Shown here in pieces: positions 60,117 to 64,000 of a stretch of DNA of 64,000 nt. Source of the stretch: a virus (Duplodnaviria; Caudoviricetes); IMG/VR virus record IMGVR_UViG_3300020577_003313; one strand, 5' to 3'. The notes below the pieces were generated by a model, which was given only the letters and a program-made list of their open reading frames with translations, was not told where the DNA came from and did no database searches. The first letter of the stretch is position 1; the number at the start of each line of letters is the position of its first letter. A program made the position numbers and the translations under genes.

Positions 60117-60924
60117 ATGCAAGTTTTGTTTCTAGTCTAAAGTTCTTTCTGTTTAACAGATTAAGAAGTCTAGTTGAAGATTCTACGTCAGAGTAACCAG
60201 AGGTTCCTCTGCATAGAATTGATCCCTTAAGGGATAAGGCTGATTCTGGGCCGAAAGTCTTTCCAGAAAATAATTGACATATCCACTGACTATTACCAGC
60301 ATAGGTAATCTTTTCTGCGGCAGTTACAATCATTTCTTCACCTAGAGTTAATAGCATCGAGTGGATATTAATCGGCTCAGCATGCTTATTTCTAGTGTGG
60401 ATAGTTATGTCTACTATGTCTTGATCTGTGTACATAACTACATCGCCTTCAATCAATATTTTGTTTATCCAAGTTCTATATTTGAAGATCTTGGCGATCT
60501 TGTTCTCTTCATCGACATAGGACCAAGTCCCATTAGGATCGGCCAGTGCATCTATCTTGCTCTTAAATACTATCTCTGAGCAGTGCCCTGCTATGATTGT
60601 ATTATTACTAGCCAAGCTGTATTCAGCAGAGAACGATGGAGTAATTGCCATAAGATTATCAACTACCCATGGAGAATATTTAAAGTCTGGAAGACTTAAT
60701 GTGGGGTCTGCTACATACTCTAGAGATGTTGACGTGAAGGAACGCTTTACAATAGCCTTCACATATAGCACATTATTTATTATGGCTGCCTGGTATACAA
60801 AACCAGTTTGAAGGTCTCTAGCTGTTCCTACACTATCAGGCACAGGAGTTGTTAATGCTGTCTTAGTCCAGTAGGAAGCGTCTACTACTTCTGGCAGACT
60901 GGTAATAGTTATTCTGGTAGTCAT
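60115..60924 (-). CDS. Hypothetical protein
   Basis: Likely start is ATG 60924 (ATGA overlap with the upstream stop) rather than 60954; beta-rich; no motif recognised. Confidence 0.6.
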   Translation of the reverse strand: MTTRITITSLPEVVDASYWTKTALTTPVPDSVGTARDLQTGFVYQAAIINNVLYVKAIVKRSFTSTSLEYVADPTLSLPDFKYSPWVVDNLMAITPSFSAEYSLASNNTIIAGHCSEIVFKSKIDALADPNGTWSYVDEENKIAKIFKYRTWINKILIEGDVVMYTDQDIVDITIHTRNKHAEPINIHSMLLTLGEEMIVTAAEKITYAGNSQWICQLFSGKTFGPESALSLKGSILCRGTSGYSDVESSTRLLNLLNRKNFRLETKLA

Positions 60925-61385
60925 ACTGTTATTTTGTTCATCTTCTCTAGCCAAGCTAGAGGGTAATCTGTACAGACCCCGCGAGTGTGTAAAGTTATGG
61001 CGGTATTGGGAGGTCCTAGCTCTACTACAACTCCATTATCCATGTATATTCCTGGATAAGACCATATCCAGCCATGAGAAGTTAAAGTCATTTCGTCATT
61101 TTTATGGTAGAACCAATTATATTTGCGCTGACTATCATACAGCCAATTGGCTGCATTAAGATCCTTTGCGTGGATAACTAAAAAATTAGCAAATGATTCT
61201 AAGAACGACTCGTCAATTTTATACTCTGGGAAGTCATGGCCTAACAATAGTTCATTGTCGACGAGCCATAAATCTACTTCACACATAATTTTATGGTCGC
61301 CCATAACGTGTTGGAGATGGGCAGGATTGTTTTCTTTACTTAAGTCTTTGCCCTTAAGGTTGCCTCTGTGCGAAATAATGATCAT
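60921..61385 (-). CDS. Short glycerophosphodiester phosphodiesterase (GDPD/PLC-like) protein
   Basis: ISHRGN..EN, EVDLW, LGHD, IHAK, TLTS.GWIW.YPG and GVCTDY motifs. Confidence 0.8.
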   Translation of the reverse strand: MIIISHRGNLKGKDLSKENNPAHLQHVMGDHKIMCEVDLWLVDNELLLGHDFPEYKIDESFLESFANFLVIHAKDLNAANWLYDSQRKYNWFYHKNDEMTLTSHGWIWSYPGIYMDNGVVVELGPPNTAITLHTRGVCTDYPLAWLEKMNKITV

Positions 61386-61975
61386 AGATATTGTCTAAGT
61401 AAATCTAAGTTTAGATAGTTAGAATTTAGTACTCTAACTACGGTTGCACCAGTTCTCAATCCAGCTTCTGCGCCTCTATCAGAGTCCTCGACTATGATAG
61501 AATCTTTAGGAGACATTCTATAAGCTGTCATAACTTTCATGTAACCTTCTGGGTTTGGCTTTGGTAACCACACGTCTTCGTTAGTGACTAGCATGTCTAA
61601 GTAACTATTAAGTCCAGATTGCTTGAGCATTATCTTAGCAGTAAGTCTAATGCTATTAGTCACACATGCTAATATGTGTCCATCTCTACATAATCTATCT
61701 AGTAGAAAGCATAGCCTATCATCTCGTTTACAATTCTTGTAGATAAGACTTAAAGTACTGTGCTGCTTATTTTCTTCAATCTGAGCTCTATATTCTTCTG
61801 GGATATTAAGAATATCTAGCTTAGTTTTAGTCGGTAAAGCTTTAAGATTAGCATCGTGTTCTTCCGCGCTCATAATCCTTACAGGTCTTATAGCTTCTAA
61901 GAAAGCATCTCTATGCCAATCACAGGCGTCTACTAGGACGCCATCTAGGTCAAACATTATTAGTTTTTTAACCAT
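61382..61975 (-). CDS. HAD-superfamily phosphatase (beta-PGM/CbbY-like)
   Basis: Motif I FDLDGVLVD, motif II VTNS, motif III KPNPEGY, motif IV VEDS. Confidence 0.9.
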   Translation of the reverse strand: MVKKLIMFDLDGVLVDACDWHRDAFLEAIRPVRIMSAEEHDANLKALPTKTKLDILNIPEEYRAQIEENKQHSTLSLIYKNCKRDDRLCFLLDRLCRDGHILACVTNSIRLTAKIMLKQSGLNSYLDMLVTNEDVWLPKPNPEGYMKVMTAYRMSPKDSIIVEDSDRGAEAGLRTGATVVRVLNSNYLNLDLLRQYL

Positions 61976-62612
61976 AAGCTAAAGACTTATTGACTACAAA
62001 TAGATCGCCTTCTCCATATGGGTGAAAGTTAGGAGTGCTAAACTCCTTAACGAGGAAGTCATTTTCTTTTAAGAATTCTTCTACCACACTCTTAACTGGA
62101 TGTCCCTCATAGTAAGGTACCATCGTTGCTTCTGTATGTATAAAGTCTACAGTACTTAGGTAATCACCCATCCCGATCATTACTTCTATTTCAAATCCTT
62201 GGGCGTCGGCCCAAAGTATGTCTACTTTGGTAATTCCTAGTTCTTTAAGAATAGAATCTAGTCGCCTGACCGGTACTGGATACTCATTATAGTCTTGGAC
62301 TATAGCAGAGTAGTGTGGTTTAAGTAAACTTCCAGCTCCGTGGTTTTGATTTTGTGGAGGAGAGTGAAGTATAGCTGTTCCTTCACTACTACCTAGAGCA
62401 ACTGGGAAGAACTTTATATTAGTGGTTAACTTAGATTCTATTTCAGCTTTTTGATGTGGGTTAGGTTCAAATGCTAATATCAGAGCATCAGGATATACTG
62501 ATCTGAATTCCAAGCTTTGTCCTAGATCTCTTGATCCAACATCTAATATAACTTTGGGACTGTAAGAAGGTTTTTCCTTCTTAATAAAGTCAAGAAACTT
62601 GTCTATTAGCAT
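61968..62612 (-). CDS. FkbM-family SAM-dependent methyltransferase
   Basis: ILDVGSRDLG, AFEPNP, VALG, VRRLD and DILWADAQGFE..V..G motifs; the likely start ATG 62612 overlaps the upstream stop. Confidence 0.9.
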   Translation of the reverse strand: MLIDKFLDFIKKEKPSYSPKVILDVGSRDLGQSLEFRSVYPDALILAFEPNPHQKAEIESKLTTNIKFFPVALGSSEGTAILHSPPQNQNHGAGSLLKPHYSAIVQDYNEYPVPVRRLDSILKELGITKVDILWADAQGFEIEVMIGMGDYLSTVDFIHTEATMVPYYEGHPVKSVVEEFLKENDFLVKEFSTPNFHPYGEGDLFVVNKSLAYG

Positions 62613-63775
62613 TTTGCAGCTCCCCACTTTGCCACAGCTTCTCCGAACTCTTGTCCGTATTCTTCGTGGACAGCTTGTACCATAGCTTGAGCGCCAGCAT
62701 ATGTACCGCCAGGATGAGCATGTATTGCTCCGCCAGTATTAGCTAGCCAGTCGTTACCGACTTTAGCTTTAATAGAAGCTACTAGCCCAGGGTGCATTCC
62801 ACAGCTTAGAGCTGGTATAACGTTGTAAGATCTTAAGGTATCTAATACTTTAAGAGTTTCTGCGTCGTTATTTGAGTACCCACCAATCATGCCTGCATGA
62901 AGTGAGTCAACACCGCACATACCTGCTAGTTGGCACAAAACATTCCAGCTAATTCTATATGTGTTTGAGTTGTTAGTCAGAGTTTCTATTCCACTTCTTT
63001 GGTAGTGGATAAATATTGGCAAGTCTAGTTCTCTAATGGATTTGTAAGCACCAAGACCAGACCAGAAGTTAACATGAACTGAATTACCACCAAGCTTATG
63101 TACTAGTTTTACTCTATCTAGAATATGAGCAGGATCAGAATTTATGCACACGGAATAGATAGGTGGGTTAGCTTTATTTGCTAGAAAGTTAGCTACCAAA
63201 GGTACTCTATCTTCTATTTTACAGAAAGATGGATTAGATAGTATCTCGTCTTCCTTAATAAAATCAAGTCCACTGTCTACCATCTCCTTGACCATATCAA
63301 GAAGAGTCTCTTTACTCAAGCCAGTCTTTGGCTTGAGAATACCTCCAGCGAACGGTCTACTGTTTCTTGCGCCTCTCCTCTCTCTTAGTCCAGTTATACC
63401 GTATTTTGGTGGTAGCACTTTTAACTTAGGGGCCTCCAAGGCCACAACCTTGCAAGCAATAATATTGTCTATATCAGACTGGCCGCCTTGAATCATGCAT
63501 AATAGCTGAGATACTCCATCAGTTTCCCAGTCTAGATTAATATATGGAAAAGCTATTTCTACTCTATTTCCTGAGTAGCCCACAATCTTACAGCTATGAT
63601 TTCTAAATAGTTCTTCGGATTCCCATCTGTTTCTAAGATTAGGATTACCAACGCTTTGGCCTATAGCCAAATCCCAGGCAGCTTTTTGTATACCATCTCT
63701 TGAGATTATCTCATAGGTTACAAAGAAGTGTGTGTCTTTCAGTTCTTCTTTATTAGCTTCGGTTATTATCTTCAT
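62606..63775 (-). CDS. RuBisCO-like protein (form IV RLP)
   Basis: GGILKPKTGL, GLDFIKEDEILSN (carbamylated Lys plus Mg ligands), PALSCGMHPG and GGAIHAHPGG..AGA.AM; lacks the residues equivalent to E60, N123, H294 and K334. Confidence 0.92.
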   Translation of the reverse strand: MKIITEANKEELKDTHFFVTYEIISRDGIQKAAWDLAIGQSVGNPNLRNRWESEELFRNHSCKIVGYSGNRVEIAFPYINLDWETDGVSQLLCMIQGGQSDIDNIIACKVVALEAPKLKVLPPKYGITGLRERRGARNSRPFAGGILKPKTGLSKETLLDMVKEMVDSGLDFIKEDEILSNPSFCKIEDRVPLVANFLANKANPPIYSVCINSDPAHILDRVKLVHKLGGNSVHVNFWSGLGAYKSIRELDLPIFIHYQRSGIETLTNNSNTYRISWNVLCQLAGMCGVDSLHAGMIGGYSNNDAETLKVLDTLRSYNVIPALSCGMHPGLVASIKAKVGNDWLANTGGAIHAHPGGTYAGAQAMVQAVHEEYGQEFGEAVAKWGAAKC

Positions 63776-63777
63776 AG

Positions 63778-63999
63778 TTAATCAATGTTAAGATACTTGT
63801 CTGTTGGTATAGATGGCGTCTTTATGACTAAAATTTTACAGTCAGTTTGAAACTCAGCTTTTGTTATCTCTCCAGGTTCAATAACAAATATCTCATTCTT
63901 CTTTATAGGTATACCATTTATTGTCATCTTACCTTTTAAGAGGACATTGTATTCTGTAGCAATTTTATGGTGATGCCTTGGCCAGTCTTCGCCTTTCTT
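63778..63999 (-). CDS. Cupin-domain protein, C-terminal part (5' truncated; not in ORF track)
   Basis: Manual translation KKGEDWPRHHHKIATEYNVLLKGKMTING...IFVIEPGE...IKTPSIPTDKY* shows the cupin HxH...E motif; stop lies 2 nt before the RLP ATG. Confidence 0.8.
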   Translation of the reverse strand, partial: KKGEDWPRHHHKIATEYNVLLKGKMTINGIPIKKNEIFVIEPGEITKAEFQTDCKILVIKTPSIPTDKYLNID

Positions 64000-64000
64000 A

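Follow-up and report, generated by a model that had tools for sequence, protein, structure and literature searches.

To our knowledge, all characterised RuBisCO-like proteins (RLPs) act in salvage or catabolism, and a biosynthetic job has never been shown for the family. The RLP discussed here is encoded near the end of a 64,000-nucleotide stretch of viral DNA (Duplodnaviria; Caudoviricetes; IMG/VR record IMGVR_UViG_3300020577_003313), which was analysed at its full length and is called the window below. Similarly to the Bacillus MtnW/MtnX/MtnD pathway, its locus combines the RLP fold, a HAD protein, and a cupin. In contrast to that pathway, the HAD and the cupin are inconstant partners here, the RLP does not reach the MtnW models, and it keeps R295 and H327 (RuBisCO numbering throughout, unless stated otherwise). 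In the methylthioadenosine (MTA)-isoprenoid shunt of R. rubrum and R. palustris, the gene of the DeepYkr RLP adjoins a small cupin gene (PMC5893883), as the RLP gene does in the window. The DeepYkr RLP is a 5-methylthioribulose-1-phosphate 1,3-isomerase that works by proton transfer, and the cupin (methylsulfurylase) takes its product (PMC5893883). The shunt is a salvage route with MtnP and MtnA and no nucleotidyltransferase (NTase), whereas an NTase is the constant partner of the present RLPs and their loci are glycan loci. By analogy, the shunt shows how an RLP–cupin pair can cooperate on a ketopentose phosphate.

About 80 phage RLPs of a ‘Form IV-like’ clade have been reported, with their function left open and no gene context (Jaffe et al. 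2019, PMC6389311), and unplaced RuBisCO homologues were already noted in the 2007 GOS paper. This clade was not considered when the window was first interpreted from its sequence (the original prediction). The RLP of the window resembles these proteins in being divergent, in lying on a large contig of a myovirus-type phage, and in the partial conservation of its active-site residues; the NTase/cupin/GDPD cassette, the gene fusions, and the range over SAR11, Legionella, and DPANN are added here (compare PMC6389311). As far as the literature was searched, the phage RLP clade is published and the cassette, the fusions, and a biosynthetic role apparently are not; no functional assignment linking the clade to a nucleotidyltransferase, a viral glycosyltransferase (GT), or biosynthetic gene clusters was found there.

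A comparable order of steps is known from routes to activated sugars and polyols. In the nucleotide-heptose route (GmhA-HldE-GmhB-HldC) and the cytidine diphosphate (CDP)-pentitol/pentulose routes (TarI/TarJ and the xylulose-5-phosphate cytidylyltransferase of pneumococcal capsule loci), a ketose phosphate of central metabolism is isomerised, its phosphate is adjusted by a HAD enzyme, and the product passes through an NTase to a transferase. The route proposed below would follow the same logic, and a LicD gene beside the RLP–NTase pair of Legionella fits a CDP-alcohol-type donor. We know of no such route that uses a RuBisCO-fold enzyme, a miniature GDPD, or this NTase subfamily. The closest solved relative of the cassette NTase, 4evw from V. 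cholerae, is a structural-genomics entry without known substrate and names no sugar.

The five genes at 60921-64000 of the window encode the cupin, the RLP, an FkbM-family methyltransferase, a HAD hydrolase, and a miniature GDPD-like phosphodiesterase (mini-GDPD). They probably form the tail of a phage glycan-biosynthesis operon, in which the RLP would isomerise a keto-sugar phosphate and the NTase would activate the product. A biosynthetic route to an activated unit is the best reading because the NTase pairing is constant and an RLP–NTase fusion exists; the glycan-locus context and the intact enolisation core likewise favour it. The original prediction had also argued for biosynthesis and against salvage, and the neighbourhoods in phages and in cells, which are those of glycan biosynthesis, agree with it. 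The product that it suggested, an isomerised or branched, possibly methylated sugar or polyol phosphate, and the suggested acceptors are conjecture.

All five genes lie on the minus strand. The cupin gene (63778-64000; phrog_24762, 4.8e-18) is open at its 5′ end and extends past the window, which holds the C-terminal 73 aa of 108 aa. It is followed by the genes of the form IV-like RLP (62606-63775, 389 aa, PF00016), the FkbM-family S-adenosylmethionine (SAM) methyltransferase (61968-62612, 214 aa; 61968-62627 in the list of open reading frames, ORFs), the HAD subfamily IA hydrolase (61382-61975, 197 aa), and the mini-GDPD (60921-61385, 154 aa). Read from the sequence, the junctions are a 2-nt spacer between cupin and RLP and then overlaps of 7, 8, 4, and 4 nt (ATGA type); the ATG of the FkbM gene overlaps the RLP stop. 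The tight packing of five same-strand genes running beyond the window, as well as the five gene identities, thus held up when the ORFs were re-read.

An identity look-up with the RLP recovered the Logan contig L001 (42.8 kb, present in two runs), which shows 1 mismatch to the last 11,000 bases of the window and places window position 64000 at its position 9776. Because this contig from two runs puts phage genes on both flanks, a misassembled host fragment, an artefact named in the original prediction, is ruled out. The GC content is 0.385-0.392 in the cassette and about 0.40 over the window. On L001 the cupin gene is complete (L001:9672-9998, 108 aa), directly upstream of the RLP gene and on the same strand. 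The NTase gene (L001:8951-9691, 246 aa, same strand) lies upstream of the cupin and outside the window. Further upstream, still on this strand, L001 carries a WavE-like protein (hhalign 98%), two orphans, a Methyltransf_24 protein, and a string of GT-like genes, of which one is a secure GT2 (49 bits), one is a GT-D (26 bits), and four are weak. An upstream NTase and glycosyltransferases had been predicted from the window, and both kinds of gene are therefore present. The 223-aa conserved orphan A6 has no relative in the PDB.

The minus-strand genes at 59429-64000 are the 3′-terminal ones in a run of over 20 on that strand. The run starts outside the window, after a primase-helicase (L072:5547-8012). 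Between the primase-helicase and the glycan operon, on the same strand, there are a 131-aa PNKP-like HAD phosphatase and a 344-aa orphan (L072:5547-9429). This placement behind the primase-helicase suggests expression ahead of the late structural genes. A divergent pair of GT1-like genes was also observed just upstream, in the L072:5547-9429 region.

The conservation of the cassette was analysed over 70 RLP loci (23 from IMG/VR, 46 from GTDB genomes, and L001), whose ORFs were searched with profiles of the phage orthologues. The carriers are phages, SAR11, Legionella isolates, Azospirillum, CPR bacteria including Beckwithbacteria, and DPANN archaea. The NTase was found in 66 of the 70 loci and was nearly always adjacent to the RLP, a mini or full GDPD in 50, and the cupin in 34. 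The conserved core is NTase-cupin-RLP-miniGDPD. The five genes of the window had been regarded as one set, and in this respect the original prediction has to be corrected: the FkbM gene is frequent in phages only, and the HAD has homologues in only three other loci. When the neighbours were clustered over 64 non-redundant loci, an FkbM-type methyltransferase was seen in 12 loci and one of the Methyltransf_24 type in 6. A methyltransferase of either type occurs in 15 of 18 phage loci, usually within the cassette, and the FkbM gene sits between RLP and mini-GDPD also in L003, L006, L012, L014, and L017. In the INPHARED phage collection, neither the DNA of the region nor the RLP protein matched any record.

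Natural fusions join the same partners. In protein P0003 (667 aa), an RLP of the clade (567 bits) precedes a cassette-type NTase (284 bits). An NTase–GDPD fusion is encoded at L042:9917-11434, and in DPANN loci a full-length GDPD adjoins a second NTase. In each of its three other loci the HAD is fused to an NTase (L016, with the cassette NTase, L023, and L029), and the SAR11 fusion at L029:731-2101 was confirmed by Pfam. These HAD–NTase fusions suggest that the HAD readies the phosphate ester for the NTase; it would do so as a mutase or else by taking off a second phosphate. In heptose activation, GmhB removes the second phosphate.

A separate observation concerns a 3.9-kb metagenome contig (L080:36-3461), in which a mini-GDPD is fused to the RLP N-domain and the C-part of the RLP forms a separate ORF. 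This may be a real fusion and split, or an assembly frameshift. The other genes of the contig encode a ureidoglycolate-lyase-like cupin, a Methyltransf_24 protein, and a 224-aa ORF.

The RLP matched PF00016 with 116 bits (cut-off 30.1, E 2.7e-33). Its residues were mapped by HMMER alignments to the form III RuBisCOs 2cwx, 3kdo, and 8dht. A second mapping, by MAFFT to the form I large subunit of an Azospirillum genome, agreed with the first; L077 was left out as a second RuBisCO reference, its longest frame being spurious in a high-GC genome. The RLP retains K175, K177, K201, D203, E204, R295, H327, S379, G381, G403, and G404. In its own numbering, K174, D176, and E177 align to K201, D203, and E204, and K148 and K150 to K175 and K177. 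The substitutions are H294Q, K334Y, N123G, and H298I, and E60, T65, and W66 are replaced too; for the last three, the MAFFT and HMMER columns are offset by one or two, and none is conserved in either. The protein is shortened after loop 6 and at the C-terminal tail. Judged from these alignments, the metal-carbamate machinery for proton abstraction is intact and the residues for CO2 addition and hydration are gone. The RLP is not a carboxylase, because E60, N123, H294, H298, and K334 are lost. RLP residues were also assigned to what we take to be the two phosphate sites of RuBisCO.

No NCBIfam equivalog was reached by the RLP, and every score was far under its cut-off. The values were 146 bits for rubisco_III (cut-off 497), 73 bits for the form II RuBisCO model (cut-off 489), 98 bits for the 3-oxo-isoapionate-4-phosphate decarboxylase OiaX (cut-off 700), and, for the MtnW models TIGR03332 and PRK09549, 82 bits (cut-off 513.6) and 114.8 bits (cut-off 409), respectively. 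The MtnW-type identity that the original prediction had named as its possible undoing was thus not borne out.

A profile search of 1.84 billion representatives gave roughly 30 RLP clusters (50% identity) above 220 bits. In a FastTree tree of 71 rows, an RLP clade of 62 split from the other RuBisCO-family proteins with a support of 100. A subclade with a support of 99 contains all 18 phage rows, including the window protein, and L037, a metagenome-assembled genome (MAG) of Beckwithbacteria; it also takes in a Patescibacteria MAG and sequences of Saccharibacteria, Verrucomicrobia, and some SAR11. The window RLP is the longest branch of this subclade. In the column read-out, 18 phage sequences, 44 cellular ones, and the top representatives share the signature Q294/Y334/G123. 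The RLP would accordingly be placed in the ‘Form IV-like’ phage/Beckwithbacteria clade, a placement made with our own rows and not with the sequences of Jaffe et al. A modelled complex of the RLP with the NTase gave a score of 0.00, which was taken as evidence neither way.

Other domain combinations were seen among the RLP relatives. P0083 (583 aa) carries a TIR_2 domain ahead of a complete RLP (N and C domains); nothing like it was met in the literature searched, although the searches were not aimed at such a fusion. In P0038 and P0046 (726 and 742 aa), a domain of the IF-2B family is fused to a RuBisCO large subunit. Both fall outside the phage clade, with about 190-210 bits. The IF-2B family is that of the ribose-1,5-bisphosphate and methylthioribose-1-phosphate isomerases.

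The partner proteins were identified by motifs, profiles, and folds. The NTase orthologues share the consensus PMAGLGSRF...PKPLI with invariant P8, G11, G13, R15, F16, and K25. Their profile found 4evw, an NDP-sugar pyrophosphorylase, as the nearest solved relative (3e-30, full length) and then ranked the NTases of mannose-1-phosphate, heptose-1-phosphate, and glucose-1-phosphate; the single sequence stays under the Pfam cut-off (22.9 against 27). With its GxGxR loop, its lysine, and this homology, the gene at L001:8951-9691 is predicted to encode a sugar-phosphate NTase. In the cupin, the HxH...E metal motif (H44, H46, E51) is invariant in 16 orthologues. Pfam scores of the cupin stayed below the cut-off and the NCBIfam scan gave no match. 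Its AlphaFold2 model (pLDDT 82) matched many small cupins with a Foldseek probability of 1.0, among them the archaeal phosphomannose isomerase 7zvm and KdgF. On the modelled fold and the metal motif, it is assigned to the cupin superfamily.

The FkbM protein scored 66.6 bits for PF05050 (cut-off 22.7) and 64.8 bits for TIGR01444 (cut-off 37.7). The HAD scored 82.9 bits for PF13419 HAD_2 (cut-off 23.8) and 73.5 bits for the PGMB-YQAB subfamily, and its motifs DLDG, TNS, KPNP, and EDSD are intact, with FDLDG at residues 8-12. From these motifs it is classed in subfamily IA, of the beta-phosphoglucomutase / sugar-phosphatase type, within which mutase and phosphatase are indistinguishable from sequence. 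The 154-aa protein had been called GDPD-like, and motifs, profile match, and fold back this name. It shows the HRGN..EN..ExD..GHD motifs, in which, over 17 orthologues, H6, R7, E18, N19, E36, D38, and H50 never vary and D51 hardly does. The orthologue profile aligned to the N-terminal catalytic half of the PDB GDPD 7e0v (E 5e-4), and the AlphaFold2 model (pLDDT 94) gave top Foldseek matches that were almost all GDPDs, with TM-scores by target of 0.22-0.45. Pfam did not place the protein in PF03009, giving zero matches at E<=1. The Atlas has the same shape in three clusters, with 688, 78, and 73 members, which are entirely viral and unnamed. As a full-length GDPD barrel has about 240 aa, the protein is best described as a predicted cut-down GDPD.

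Other RLP neighbours, typical of glycan loci, include GT2, WavE-like, and UDP-GlcNAc 2-epimerase genes, and GT9 genes in SAR11. Genes for LicD and for a Wzy-like membrane protein, divergent from the RLP–NTase pair, are found in a Tatlockia MAG as well as in three Legionella species that are in culture; the minimal Legionella islands hold RLP, NTase, and LicD only. As no conserved feeder enzyme is present in these islands, the input is probably a central keto-sugar phosphate. LicD-family enzymes take CDP-alcohol-type donors. The product of the RLP route may therefore be passed on as a phospho-sugar and not as a glycosyl unit. By analogy, the mini-GDPD might be the phage counterpart of LicD in this role, a guess with one lineage behind it.

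The following course is proposed; its substrate, order of steps, nucleotide, and acceptor are what we infer from the genes. First, the RLP would enolise a keto-sugar phosphate of central metabolism with its carbamylated lysine, Mg2+ site, and flanking lysines, and the proton would be put back elsewhere, giving an epimer or a carbonyl-shifted isomer. The cupin would then carry out an adjoining metal-dependent isomerisation. The HAD would shift or remove a phosphate so that a single phosphate ester remains, and the NTase would couple this ester to a nucleoside monophosphate (NMP), giving a unit activated by a nucleoside diphosphate (NDP). After methylation by the FkbM protein and the second methyltransferase, the GT-like and WavE-like transferases would load the unit on a glycan, on the virion or on the envelope of the infected cell. 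Finally, the mini-GDPD would make or trim a phosphodiester link.

Several points weigh against this proposal. Most upstream GT assignments score under the Pfam thresholds. An Asp at position 298, present in most clade members, makes a second phosphate site less likely. Neither a kinase nor another feeder enzyme turned out to be conserved at the RLP loci, and the input has to be guessed. We have no explanation at hand for a phosphodiesterase in a nucleotide-sugar route. The HAD is rare and the FkbM gene is missing from most cellular loci, so their steps are not core. The chemistry is read from sequence.

The RLP could also act after activation: the NTase would make a common NDP-sugar, an SDR would convert it by oxidation or dehydration into an NDP-keto-sugar, and the RLP with the cupin, as a new kind of enzyme pair, would epimerise or keto-isomerise it. 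RmlC and FdtA are cupins that act on nucleotide-bound sugars in deoxysugar routes. The NTase looks like ordinary sugar-1-phosphate NTases, and the replacement of T65, W66, and K334, which close over the C1 phosphate in RuBisCO, could leave room for a nucleotide. SDR epimerase/dehydratase genes lie within 7 kb of the RLP in 25 of the 64 loci, and in the nearest relatives (L003, L006, and L014) they stand directly upstream of the cassette. However, the 30 kb read around the cassette of the window phage contain no SDR, and the minimal Legionella islands have none either, so no keto group could arise there on an NDP-aldose. The cupin also has a metal motif, unlike RmlC and presumably FdtA. Activation before isomerisation is therefore considered unlikely.

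The same chemistry could serve the phage DNA as acceptor, that is, a hypermodification of bases that shields the genome from host nucleases. The position of the operon, directly after the primase-helicase and on its strand, fits early or middle expression, and the set of isomerase, phosphomutase-like HAD, and NTase is reminiscent of phage pathways for sugars that are attached to DNA. Against this, neither a hydroxymethylase nor a DNA glycosyltransferase family was found in the same 30 kb, at least seven GT-like genes suit an oligosaccharide better than a DNA base modification, and the cellular homologues lie in loci of lipopolysaccharide or capsule type with GT9, WavE, LicD, and Wzy-like genes. 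DNA as the acceptor is thus a distinctly improbable choice.

Salvage of a SAM by-product, with the RLP and cupin working as in the MTA-isoprenoid shunt or the RLP, HAD, and cupin as in MtnW/MtnX/MtnD, appears slightly less probable still. It would account for the RLP–cupin adjacency, the trait that marks the shunt in R. rubrum and R. palustris (PMC5893883), for the HAD in the window, and for two SAM-dependent methyltransferases in the operon. The fit is poor: the defining partners of a salvage pathway are missing, and the RLP falls short of the MtnW models (82 and 115 bits against 514 and 409). The constant partner is an NTase, and no MtnA, MtnK, MtnP, or MtnB occurs among the conserved neighbours; the cupin, which lacks any NCBIfam match, is missing from half of the loci and the HAD from nearly all. 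R295 and H327 of the RLP are missing from the MtnW-like structure 4nas. The methyltransferases, moreover, presumably release S-adenosylhomocysteine and not MTA.

It is very improbable that the RLP is a CO2-fixing RuBisCO serving the phage as an auxiliary metabolic gene, or that host DNA was misjoined to phage DNA in the assembly. The Pfam RuBisCO_large match by itself would allow this reading. However, the RLP has substitutions at K334, H294, N123, and E60 and is shorter in the loop-6 region and at the C-terminal tail, and neither a small subunit nor a phosphoribulokinase is present. Contigs of two runs show identical junctions flanked on either side by phage genes, the GC content is uniform, and the cassette is carried by 23 viral contigs.

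Downstream of the five genes, the minus-strand run continues with three more. A 269-aa orphan (60115-60924; 60115-60954 in the ORF list) is translationally coupled to the mini-GDPD. It has no Pfam, PHROG, or NCBIfam match and is not found in the other cassette loci; in the Atlas it matched viral hypothetical proteins only, with a poor model. The tRNA gene that follows (60045-60116) overlaps, at its 5′ end, the stop codon (TGA) of the 269-aa ORF. It was detected by ARAGORN and by Rfam RF00005 (39.2 bits), has a cloverleaf fold, an 8-nt anticodon loop CUUUCAAU, and an encoded CCA, and was called by ARAGORN as ‘tRNA-??? (ttca)’ with a 4-base anticodon. With 15 of 33, TGA is the most frequent stop codon of the window, and a plain opal suppressor would therefore be odd. 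The tRNA may be a quadruplet decoder or a decayed gene, and 14 related phage loci lack it. The run ends with the gene of a 176-aa orphan (59429-59959), for which the family searches gave no match. A terminator-like hairpin of 14 pairs (59362-59397, minus strand), a pattern match from a consensus scan only, lies where the run converges on the plus-strand structural module.

The remainder of the window is taken up by a virion module on the plus strand. It includes baseplate wedge genes (phrog_6, 2e-44), and the element is therefore a tailed phage. The original prediction had spoken of a myovirus tail module, and ‘myovirus’ is plausible. About a dozen ORFs of 800-2005 aa lie around and after the wedge genes (1-59300). 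No paralogy was found among these giant ORFs, and in the six that were scanned Pfam recognised only a beta-helix, in 28984-32433. The virion module is unusually large and opaque. At its end, a 240-aa protein (58572-59294, plus strand) showed weak matches to sigma-70 region 4 and phage sigma factors (E ~5e-3 to 7e-4).

Returning to the glycan-biosynthesis operon, we see about an even chance that this RLP clade is the first RuBisCO-fold enzyme with a role in biosynthesis. It would then make a rare keto-sugar or a pentulose or hexulose phosphate that is activated by the NTase, possibly into a CDP-type donor used via LicD or the mini-GDPD, as a new surface-glycan donor in phages, SAR11, Legionella, CPR, and DPANN. 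An RLP clade wired, and once fused, to nucleotide activation in glycan loci would widen the chemistry of the most abundant enzyme fold on Earth. Minimal cassettes are present in carriers that are in culture, namely three Legionella species (L. nautarum and L. drozanskii among them) and Azospirillum oleiclasticum, so the question is directly testable. If the proposal is true, an undescribed sugar or phospho-sugar would be present on the surfaces of very abundant organisms, SAR11 and Legionellaceae (Legionella included), and of their viruses, and such surface structures are likely to bear on phage–host recognition.

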